From a virus (taxonomy: Duplodnaviria; Caudoviricetes): DNA of 42,426 nucleotides. The position numbers were made by a program, and so were the translations under genes. Shown here one piece after another: positions 13,724 through 15,275 of this stretch (the stretch's first letter is position 1; each line of letters opens with the position of its first letter). The stretch lies in IMG/VR virus record IMGVR_UViG_3300020441_000010, positions 1 to 42,426 of that record. One strand, given 5' to 3'. The notes under the pieces were generated by a model that was given only the letters and a program-made list of their open reading frames with translations, ran no database searches and was not told the origin of the DNA.

Positions 13724-13796
13724 TGCTCGCTGTGAGGATCGAACTCACCTTAGGCAAATTATGAGTTTGCTGCATTCACCAGATTGCTAAGCGAGC
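13724..13796 (-). tRNA. tRNA with CAT anticodon (Ile2 or elongator Met)
   Basis: Acceptor stem GCTCGCT/AGCGAGC, anticodon arm GCAAA-CTCATAA-TTTGC, T loop GTTCGA; no encoded CCA. Confidence 0.92.
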
Positions 13797-13803
13797 GTAA
13801 GGC

Positions 13804-13977
13804 TTAAGAAGCCTCGTTGTTCAACTCAGTATACAACTTGATGAGTTCGTCGTCTGCAGGAACCATGACGGCTTTATGACCGTCTTCATTAATGATTCCT
13901 AAGGTTTCCCCATTCTCAACCCGTGAGAAAAGTTCATCCCAGTTTTTTTCCCACTCTTCCACGGTATAAAAATTCAT
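13804..13977 (-). CDS. Phd/YefM antitoxin-like small protein
   Basis: YTVEEWEKNWDELFSRVENGETLGII...KAVMVP follows the Phd N-terminal domain pattern; start trimmed to 13977 (ATGA overlap). Confidence 0.55.
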   Translation of the reverse strand: MNFYTVEEWEKNWDELFSRVENGETLGIINEDGHKAVMVPADDELIKLYTELNNEAS

Positions 13978-14801
13978 CGCAGTTTTGGTCCCATCATCCA
14001 TGCTACTAAAGAAATTCTTTGTCCTCTAAGAATAGGTGTTACTCTATGTGGTGTTCTCGAATCAAATACTACTACAGTTCCCCTAGTTTTATCTACATTT
14101 TGAACTTTTCCTTGATAATCAATGAACTGTAATTTACCACCACTATACTCTTCAGGATCTGAAAGAATGATACTCATGCTGAGTTTTCTAGTAAGATCTT
14201 TATCTGCACTCGTTCCGTAATCAGAATGCCATCCATAGAAATGATTCTTATCGTATCTTGTGACTTGAACCGATTCCATCTCTGTTAGATCGTATTCAAA
14301 AATTTCTCTGTTAGCGATGTGAAAATAATGAGTAAAGATTGTGCTTACCCAGTCAAGTTCAGCAATCCAAGATACATCACACTGTCTTGATTCTGGATAC
14401 TCTCCACCTTCTTCATCATTTCCAACTTCACCATTTTCCCAGTCTTCCTCTTCGATTTCGGAAACTCTTTGCTCAATAAGATCAATAAGATAATCTGGAA
14501 GAATTTCTTCAAAGACAATAGGAGAGTGAGCTATCTTATGATCACCAAGCAAGTTCTCTCTAATCTCTTTTTCGTTTCCATCTTCATCATAAAACTCTCG
14601 GATGAAACTAATTTCTTCATCCGTTAGAGCTACAGGTTCATCATCTGGATTATCAGTTTCTATATACTGAACTCCTTCAGACTCATCAGCATTTAAAACA
14701 ATAGATTGATTATCTACCTCTTCTTCTTCAACAACTTCATCAGGAAGATTGTTTTCATCAAAGGTAACTTTCAATTCGTGTACAATGTTCTCTTCAGACA
14801 T
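13974..14801 (-). CDS. 2OG-Fe(II) oxygenase (prolyl-hydroxylase/PKHD-like) with acidic N-terminal extension
   Basis: YGWHSD, RKLS, YSGGKL, VFDSRTPHRVTP and RISLVAW motifs. Confidence 0.9.
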   Translation of the reverse strand: MSEENIVHELKVTFDENNLPDEVVEEEEVDNQSIVLNADESEGVQYIETDNPDDEPVALTDEEISFIREFYDEDGNEKEIRENLLGDHKIAHSPIVFEEILPDYLIDLIEQRVSEIEEEDWENGEVGNDEEGGEYPESRQCDVSWIAELDWVSTIFTHYFHIANREIFEYDLTEMESVQVTRYDKNHFYGWHSDYGTSADKDLTRKLSMSIILSDPEEYSGGKLQFIDYQGKVQNVDKTRGTVVVFDSRTPHRVTPILRGQRISLVAWMMGPKLR

Positions 14802-14848
14802 CTTAAAATTTCAGTGTAATAATTTTGTATAATTATGTATACAAGATA

Positions 14849-14922
14849 TCGGGATGATAGGATTTGAACCTACGACCTCCCGCTCCCAAAGCGGGCGCTC
14901 TACCAAACTAAGCTACATCCCG
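14849..14922 (-). tRNA. tRNA-Pro(TGG)
   Basis: Cloverleaf CGGGATG...CATCCCG-A with anticodon loop TTTGGGA. Confidence 0.95.
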
Positions 14923-14926
14923 ATAA

Positions 14927-14978
14927 GGCAGATTCCTATCGCCGCTACTCCTGAATCTACCAAAGGGGAGCACCGCAG
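14927..14978 (-). ncRNA. Candidate H-type pseudoknot RNA in the tRNA-Pro leader
   Basis: P1 CTGC(GG)TGCTCC / GGAGTA-GCGG crosses P2 GGTAGATTC / GAATCTGCC. Confidence 0.55.
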
Positions 14979-15003
14979 TTAAACACTCATGTCTAACAGT
15001 ATT

Positions 15004-15032
15004 ATTATACCTTACAGATCTTCTTCCTGCAA
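15004..15032 (-). promoter_or_regulatory. Sigma70-type promoter for the pseudoknot/tRNA-Pro transcript
   Basis: TTGCAG-17 bp-TATAAT. Confidence 0.55.
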
Positions 15033-15275
15033 CTTCTCTAAGGTTCCTATCCTCTTAGATCTATCTTCCCATGTTTGTCCTCCATCAAATCCTTTCAAAG
15101 GATTGATGCAGGTTTCGTCTCCAAGTTTATTACACACCAATCCTGCAAGGTCTAATTCATTTCCCTCATTTCCAGTGCCCGTCCAAACATGGTTTCCATT
15201 GATCCATGTTGCTCCGCACTTTGGACATTCTTCTCTCGTCAACTTGAGATCAGACAGTTCCCTGGATTCGGTCAT
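15012..15275 (-). CDS. Small Cys-containing (Zn-ribbon-like) hypothetical protein
   Basis: CPKC plus two further Cys; has its own promoter upstream. Confidence 0.75.
   Translation of the reverse strand: MTESRELSDLKLTREECPKCGATWINGNHVWTGTGNEGNELDLAGLVCNKLGDETCINPLKGFDGGQTWEDRSKRIGTLEKLQEEDL

Follow-up and report, generated by a model that had tools for sequence, protein, structure and literature searches.

An apparently uncatalogued pseudoknot RNA of large marine cyanomyoviruses, predicted to be an armoured small RNA that may act as a decoy

We describe what is apparently an uncatalogued family of structured RNAs in large marine cyanomyoviruses, with a fold that seems new among the orphan RNAs of cyanophages. 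The member studied here is a predicted RNA of 71 nt on the minus strand (14997–14927) of a 42,426-nt stretch of DNA, the window, a 42.4-kb fragment of a T4-like cyanophage that encodes nrdAB, 2OG-Fe(II) oxygenases and five tRNAs. Its core is a pseudoknot with extensive compensatory base changes among homologues. We give roughly even odds to the reading that it is a stand-alone, nuclease-resistant small RNA, predicted from sequence and genomic context to be protected at both ends and to act in trans as a decoy or aptamer for a partner of host or phage origin.

The sequence and coordinates given for this RNA in an earlier sequence-only reading match the minus strand from 14997 to 14927, as does the placement of its end 4 nt before tRNA-Pro: the gap occupies 14926–14923 and the tRNA body begins at 14922. 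The element is flanked on its 5' side by an 87-aa ORF of phrog_484, a group without an assigned function (15012–15275), and on its 3' side by tRNA-Pro(UGG) (feature 14848–14923), all in minus-strand orientation; this tRNA is the likely source of the RNA 3' end through RNase P and is not an obligatory partner. The upstream ORF serves as context only, the RNA being found within ~1.2 kb of the phrog_484 gene at only 6 of 80 loci. The promoter proposed earlier, TTGCAG-17-TATAAT, stands in its downstream half: the -10 hexamer TATAAT (15004–15009) is perfect and separated from G14997 by a 6-nt spacer that is conserved in homologues, but TTGCAG (15027–15032), 17 nt further 5' within the end of the 87-aa ORF, is a weak -35 hexamer with 3/6 consensus positions and is absent from the list produced by a consensus scan. 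Among the matches listed, 161 of 225 homologues have a -35 with at least 5/6 positions. The NrdB encoded in the window is closest to that of Synechococcus phage S-SM2 (88%; best 60 of 470 records). In the S-SM2 record (NC_015279.1; L790/L811), the coordinates of tRNA-Pro and tRNA-Arg lie ~55 nt downstream of the actual tRNA sequences, and in the window ARAGORN calls a tRNA-Met(CAU) at 13724–13796 (minus strand) that falls below the cut-off of the Rfam tRNA model, possibly a divergent tRNA.

Taken alone, the sequence is weak evidence for a structure, because its nested fold is no better than that of shuffled sequences (z -0.39) and, when the 52-nt core is shuffled with its dinucleotides preserved, 29 of 2000 sequences can still form crossing stems of 6 and 9 bp. 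We therefore turn to an alignment of 109 distinct homologous cores (A1), made before the metagenome loci were added. Among its 1809 stem cells, 99.7% are paired, compared with a mean of 79.9% after shuffling and a level that none of 500 shuffles reached; controls with a slid register gave 20–50% pairing. Both sides change in 13 of the 17 pairs, with 41 extra pair types. The collection of homologues and the test for covariation of both stems that had been suggested are thus in place, and the claim of an H-type pseudoknot is borne out: the pseudoknot is real.

The same alignment revises the details of the fold. The first stem, Pa (previously P1; 14943–14975), pairs 14975–14967 with 14951–14943, and the second, Pb (previously P2; 14927–14961), crosses it by pairing 14961–14953 with 14935–14927 over 9 bp; both are supported by covariation. 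Pa had been drawn with CUGC pairing to GCGG around a GG bulge at its base, which does not survive comparison, as the G14976–C14944 pair that it requires is broken in 23 of the 109 cores. Instead, G14974–C14944 covaries (GC in 86 cores, UA in 20 and UG in 3 of the 109), and the supported stem consists of two pairs, C14975–G14943 and G14974–C14944, a G.G mismatch (14973/14945) and then 6 bp. The mismatch is GG in 157, CG in 5 and AG in 3 of 165 cores. A small hairpin at 14997–14978, earlier seen as a separate element preceding the pseudoknot, belongs to the RNA as its 5'-terminal helix, P0, in which 14997–14990 pair with 14985–14978 (8 bp); its closing C is the C of CUGC. P0 is joined to Pa by U-G (14976–14977), which is invariant and unpaired. 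Loop L1 (14962–14966) reads CCUU(U), L2 is the single nucleotide A14952, and L3 (14936–14942), predicted to run along Pa, is conserved in homologues as G-C-(G/U/A)-A-(U/C)-A-G. The RNA was assigned to the strand that carries the tRNA because of its G-U wobbles.

About 20 positions, mainly in loops and junctions, are invariant. Three scans, each leaving one part of the motif unconstrained, were used to exclude invariance imposed by the search pattern; among the matches listed, freeing the middle left CCUU intact in 53 of 53 structured matches, freeing the 5' side left CUGC intact in 81 of 81, and freeing the 3' side left the terminal AGGAA intact in 76 of 76. Aligned in parallel, CCUU and GGAA (14936–14933) yield C.G, C.G, U.A and U.A, the pattern of a pyrimidine-motif triple helix. 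As loop and strand are both invariant, a geometry of this type is plausible, in which L1 is predicted to occupy the major groove of Pb as the third strand, although invariant bases by their nature yield no covariation. The scaling of L1 length with Pb length is ambiguous, since 52 long cores have an extra base that is able to pair. We ruled out a mimic of the tRNA 3'-CCA: the terminal CC covaries inside Pb, and an A comes next in only 65 of 145 copies. The invariant positions, most of them unpaired or in the putative triple helix, exceed what stability needs, which suggests a binding surface.

At the other end, the first G of P0 is the predicted transcription start. Among the matches listed, it follows the -10 hexamer at a spacer of 6 in 205 of 241 copies, with 17 copies at spacer 7 and 1–17 at each other spacer from 0 to 15; a relaxed promoter rule places it at spacer 6–7 in 228 of the 241. 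In support of this start site, 84% of 118 other promoters from the same loci have a purine at the seventh base past the -10. The 13 copies off the rule comprise 3 at spacer 5, 2 truncated, 2 unresolved, 1 in tandem behind manA and 5 with an 8-bp P0, the last of which have no -10 at 6–7 nt and probably carry a short 5' overhang. The G-C first pair of P0 in 225 of 225 copies and its 96% G are outcomes of how copies were assigned and are not counted as evidence. The length of the P0 loop is free, ranging from 4 to more than 200 nt in homologues; it may hold other conserved modules or the ends of ORFs, and the -10 spacing persists even with long inserts. The manA RNA of P-SSM2 (L806:288-485) likewise opens with a hairpin whose first base is a G and which lies 6 nt past a -10 hexamer, so that a paired start G looks, by analogy, like a general protective 5' design of stable cyanophage RNAs. 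B. subtilis RppH requires at least 2 unpaired 5' nucleotides, according to a passage of PMC3997798, a requirement that we assume to transfer to cyanobacterial enzymes.

This arrangement of the 5' end invites the idea of a ribozyme that would cleave itself before the P0 G or perform chemistry on the 5' triphosphate (branching, capping or dephosphorylation). In the predicted geometry, the P0 G would stack at the junction, next to the invariant U-G, G-G-C and L3. C14941, followed by a variable base, is invariant at the last junction (this C being preset in most search patterns) and may correspond to the catalytic C of HDV-like ribozymes, which part of PMC10879173 describes as the opening base of J4/2, with cleavage at G1. 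The short overhang that five copies with an 8-bp P0 seem to have could be removed by cleavage. Yet cleavage would have no substrate if the P0 G is +1, the copies with an overhang oppose a strict need for a triphosphate at this G, manA shares the 5' hairpin design, and no Rfam ribozyme matches. A P3/L3 domain of the HDV type is absent between the 5' strand of Pb and the 3' strand of Pa, where all 109 cores have a single nucleotide, A. We regard a ribozyme at the RNA's own 5' end as improbable, and its narrower form, in which a natural ribozyme would bury its own 5' triphosphate and modify it chemically, for instance by making a 2'-5' branch or a cap, as more improbable again; if true, the latter would give phage transcripts and the RNA modules in the P0 loop a self-made protective 5' end.

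Small theta ribozymes and other HDV-like RNAs resemble the element in being phage pseudoknots that abut tRNA genes, in opening the first helix with a G and in carrying an invariant C in the last junction, as far as the sections of PMC10879173 on these RNAs go. The element differs in lying 5' of the tRNA, where theta ribozymes lie at the tRNA 3' end, in occurring in marine rather than gut phages, and in being a single H-type knot without a nested double pseudoknot. Cleavage no more than 5 nt from the 3' end of a tRNA, as in theta ribozymes, does not apply here: in 228 of 241 copies it is a -10 hexamer that precedes the 5' G, and the adjacent tRNAs lie downstream.

Other structured segments recur in and around P0. 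A module of ~100 nt is present in or before P0 at ten loci (L055, L076, L084, L013, L046, L054, L068, L091, L652, L671), five of its copies being the exceptions to the start-site rule, and has no Rfam match in the copies scanned. Four more loop modules of 35–80 nt, at least one of them pseudoknot-like, were also without an Rfam match in the copies scanned (L592, L604, L619, L646, L666; L601, L626, L639, L653, L082, L124; L066, L081, L457, L683; L104, L702). These modules look like additional undescribed cyanophage RNA families. A nesting of manA inside P0 was considered and rejected, as the two are in tandem in L701 and the copies in L123 and L635 are truncated. Separately, manA lies tightly between two tRNA genes at three loci (L004:1631-1841, L005:1633-1843, L034:76-289), where processing would free it, an arrangement that sits poorly with a purely cis-regulatory role.

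The family occurs in a subset of T4-like cyanophages. BLAST matched the core in S-SCSM2R, SynMITS9220M01, S-SKS1, ACG-2014f, S-B43, S-B05, S-H68, RB11-B, S-SM2, Bellamy, P-SSM2 (NC_006883.2, about 144034–144104) and P-SSM5. Pattern scans found at least 120 loci in IMG/VR, where we estimate ~860 stretches, and at least 116 in metagenomes, 115 of them with an intact Pa, from an estimated total of about 1400 in that collection; the pooled set holds at least 246 distinct copies with at least 165 distinct cores. The genomes of 7 known carriers each yield a single strong match to a covariance model; under strict filters, none comes from 14 other complete T4-like marine phages (13 cyanophages and the Pelagibacter phage HTVC008M). 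One copy each was present in 5 of 5 long contigs, and a single place per record in 57 Synechococcus phage records. A second match in P-SSM2, at 14 bits and in an open reading context, was dismissed as chance.

Genomic context argues against a special link to tRNA-Pro, on which the earlier reading had focused. Among the matches listed, the 246 copies are followed by tRNA-Arg(UCU) in 78 cases, tRNA-Pro(UGG) in 31, and tRNA-Val and tRNA-Thr in one each; 122 have no tRNA and 13 are truncated. That 109 of the 111 tRNA-adjacent copies precede just two tRNAs, mostly at a gap of 3–4 nt (94 of 111, among the matches listed), might point to an accessory for the maturation of tRNA-Arg(UCU) and tRNA-Pro(UGG). 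We hold this to be the remotest of the readings considered, given the 122 copies without a tRNA and a close relative (L711) that has tRNA-Pro and lacks the element; the bias towards two tRNAs may reflect shared descent. The regular gap makes it plausible, from sequence, that in the window RNase P frees a discrete RNA of ~70 nt, as had been proposed.

Nearly all copies head a longer transcript, which is compatible with a cis role too. One such role would be that of an orphan riboswitch or cis regulator: on binding a metabolite or ion, it would adjust how stable the downstream RNA is, or how it is processed or translated, to a global signal such as light or nutrients. Several pseudoknot riboswitches have compact H-type folds with many invariant loop bases, as the element does, and the H-type riboswitches SAM-II/SAM-V, preQ1, guanidine-III and NAD+-II contain a major-groove triple. 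The element shares with them the order of stem, loop 1, stem, one nucleotide, stem and purine loop 3, with a pyrimidine L1 that matches a purine strand; its H-type pseudoknot is established by covariation. It is always 5' of its neighbour, with a start codon 15–24 nt downstream in 70 of 130 non-tRNA copies among the matches listed. Cis-regulatory candidates have been put forward in cyanophages before, namely manA and wcaG (in portions of PMC2864571) and glnA (in portions of PMC9964418). Unlike riboswitches of this class, however, the element has no Rfam match even at E 10, no association with genes of a pathway and no evident expression platform, and so far it is confined to phages. The downstream ORFs are many and unrelated, with no common pathway, and some copies lead directly into another promoter. 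A terminator-like hairpin with a U-tract follows only 1 of 130 non-tRNA copies among the matches listed, and the 3' half pairs only weakly with the 40 nt that follow (median -5.7 kcal/mol; below -10 in 12 of 132). With a tRNA after 111 of 246 copies among the matches listed, no host copy in the genomes searched and a single copy at shifting loci, we judge a riboswitch unlikely. Downstream of the motif, a short conserved inverted repeat occurs just 5' of the -35 of the next promoter, before a phrog_552-type gene, at seven loci (L009, L020, L022, L026, L030, L043, L044), and is possibly a regulator site.

Alternatively, the element could be a cis-acting 5' stabiliser or exonuclease roadblock that guards one early transcript, a tRNA precursor or an mRNA, from host RNase J or RNase E. 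Its predicted position at the 5' end, the compact pseudoknot with its putative triple helix, and the start codon or tRNA close behind all agree with such a function. A stabiliser should nevertheless recur within a genome, yet there is one copy; RNase P would sever it from the tRNA; the same promoter and tRNA-Pro occur in L711 in its absence; and a plain hairpin suffices for 5' protection, with no need of 20 invariant bases. This reading appears slightly less likely than the riboswitch. Either cis role would explain the 5' position, but neither accounts for a single copy, for the tRNA contexts or for the absence of an expression platform.

The comparison with L711 is informative about the unit itself. 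There, promoter and tRNA-Pro are kept and exactly the 71 nt from the predicted +1 to the end of Pb (14997–14927) are absent; a contig from an RNA library has the same length difference. From the varied neighbours, the one copy per genome and this exact loss, we conclude that the element is a single-copy unit, both portable and dispensable, with boundaries that coincide with those of the predicted mature RNA. Homologous contigs occur in RNA libraries of two studies (8 records in X1, 2 in X4, 3 in X18 and 0 in X2); they may stem from DNA, and some span the promoter. Two of the X18 contigs extend 12 and 35 letters beyond 14980 and perhaps end close to the +1 of each. In hosts, at least 120 matches to a loose pattern came from the 25 of 64 parts of the genome collection that were scanned; none has both stems among the matches listed, of which the best formed 9 of 14 pairs. 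The model returned 2 matches at 28 bits in 151 genomes of a Synechococcus family, both without the CCUU loop, and four cyanobacterial genomes contained no pattern match.

In a scan of the window, no family in Rfam 15 reaches its gathering threshold on the element, consistent with the earlier impression that it matches none of several named riboswitch and ribozyme consensus structures. At E values up to 10, the only match in 14700–15200 is YrlA at 16.8 bits (cut-off 69), which overlaps the tRNA, and the motif was likewise unmatched on 7 + 20 + 20 homologous loci, where manA (RF01745) and wcaG (RF01761) gave separate matches nearby and never on the motif. These two are likewise RNAs of T4-like marine cyanophages without an assigned function, according to parts of PMC2864571, and often share the same neighbourhoods. 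The element differs from them in size (~70 nt, compared with models of 192 and 98 positions), in its compact H-type knot that neither model matches, and in that about half of its copies head tRNAs. Searches of the literature by motif strings or topic returned no description, though large candidate sets might hold the motif unnamed. The motif strings are absent from the Weinberg 2010 supplement, where gapped alignments could conceal them, and from the part of the Fremin 2023 supplement that was covered; keyword passages of PMC5737381, PMC10690425 and bioRxiv 10.64898/2026.10.21.760802 do not contain the motif, and the RNA sections of the cyanophage genome papers PMC9964418 and PMC10665884 give only RNAs known to Rfam.

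A precedent for the predicted 3' end is MALAT1/MEN-beta, where RNase P cuts a downstream tRNA-like unit and leaves a 3' end protected by a triple helix. The likeness is one of analogy only, in the shared logic of an RNase P cut and a triple-helix 3' end; the element is bacterial-viral and is followed by a real tRNA, with a pseudoknot instead of an ENE. The stand-alone RNA that we favour would arise and act in four steps. A host sigma70-type RNA polymerase would initiate at G14997 early in infection, and the paired 5' end would block decay that depends on a free 5' end. The 3' end would be formed at Pb by RNase P at the tRNA or, before an ORF, by an endonuclease cut in the AU-rich spacer (the first 18 nt after non-tRNA copies are 75% AU) followed by 3' trimming to Pb, where the CCUU/GGAA triple helix would lock it. 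The U-G junction, the G.G mismatch, L3 and the triple helix would then present an invariant binding site, whose partner would most likely be a host RNA-binding or defence protein. P0 loops with other conserved modules would fit a scaffold role.

In a more specific version of this model, the decoy would imitate a type III antitoxin and so inactivate an abortive-infection RNase of the host. Such antitoxins are small structured RNAs to which the toxin binds, according to a passage of PMC10853763, where phage mimicry appears as a cited title only. The element shares with ToxI, abiF (RF03085) and their phage mimics a short structured RNA able to bind protein, and Abi_2 genes are present above cut-off in 15 of 301 host-family genomes. 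It differs in being single-copy, without repeats, an adjacent toxin or an abiF match: no tandem repeats upstream of a toxin RNase gene are present, its neighbours being tRNA-Pro, a 2OG-Fe(II) oxygenase and phrog_484. ToxN exceeds the cut-off in 0 of the 301 genomes, and the motif looks unlike the three abiF-like RNAs examined from hosts. This mimicry is thus very doubtful. The Abi_2 (AbiF-like) genes of the Synechococcus family are of interest in their own right, as the three examined (L815–L817) have a sub-threshold abiF RNA directly upstream and are candidate RNA-antitoxin systems of picocyanobacteria. A stand-alone gene for a Phd-like antitoxin (phrog_375; 13804–14001, minus strand) lies in the tRNA cluster of the window and is found in 15 of 21 phage genomes; it is present in 5 of 7 carriers of the RNA and in 10 of 14 non-carriers, and so shows no co-occurrence with the RNA.

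The element represents an apparently uncatalogued RNA family of widespread ocean viruses with conservation of riboswitch or ribozyme grade, and its presence in the cultured model phage P-SSM2 makes it directly testable. Its P0 loop points to at least five further undescribed RNA modules, and its position and context suggest that cyanophage motifs regarded as cis-regulatory, such as manA, may include free-standing RNAs. If the RNA is a decoy, it would be an RNA-based tool of cyanophages for host takeover or counter-defence.
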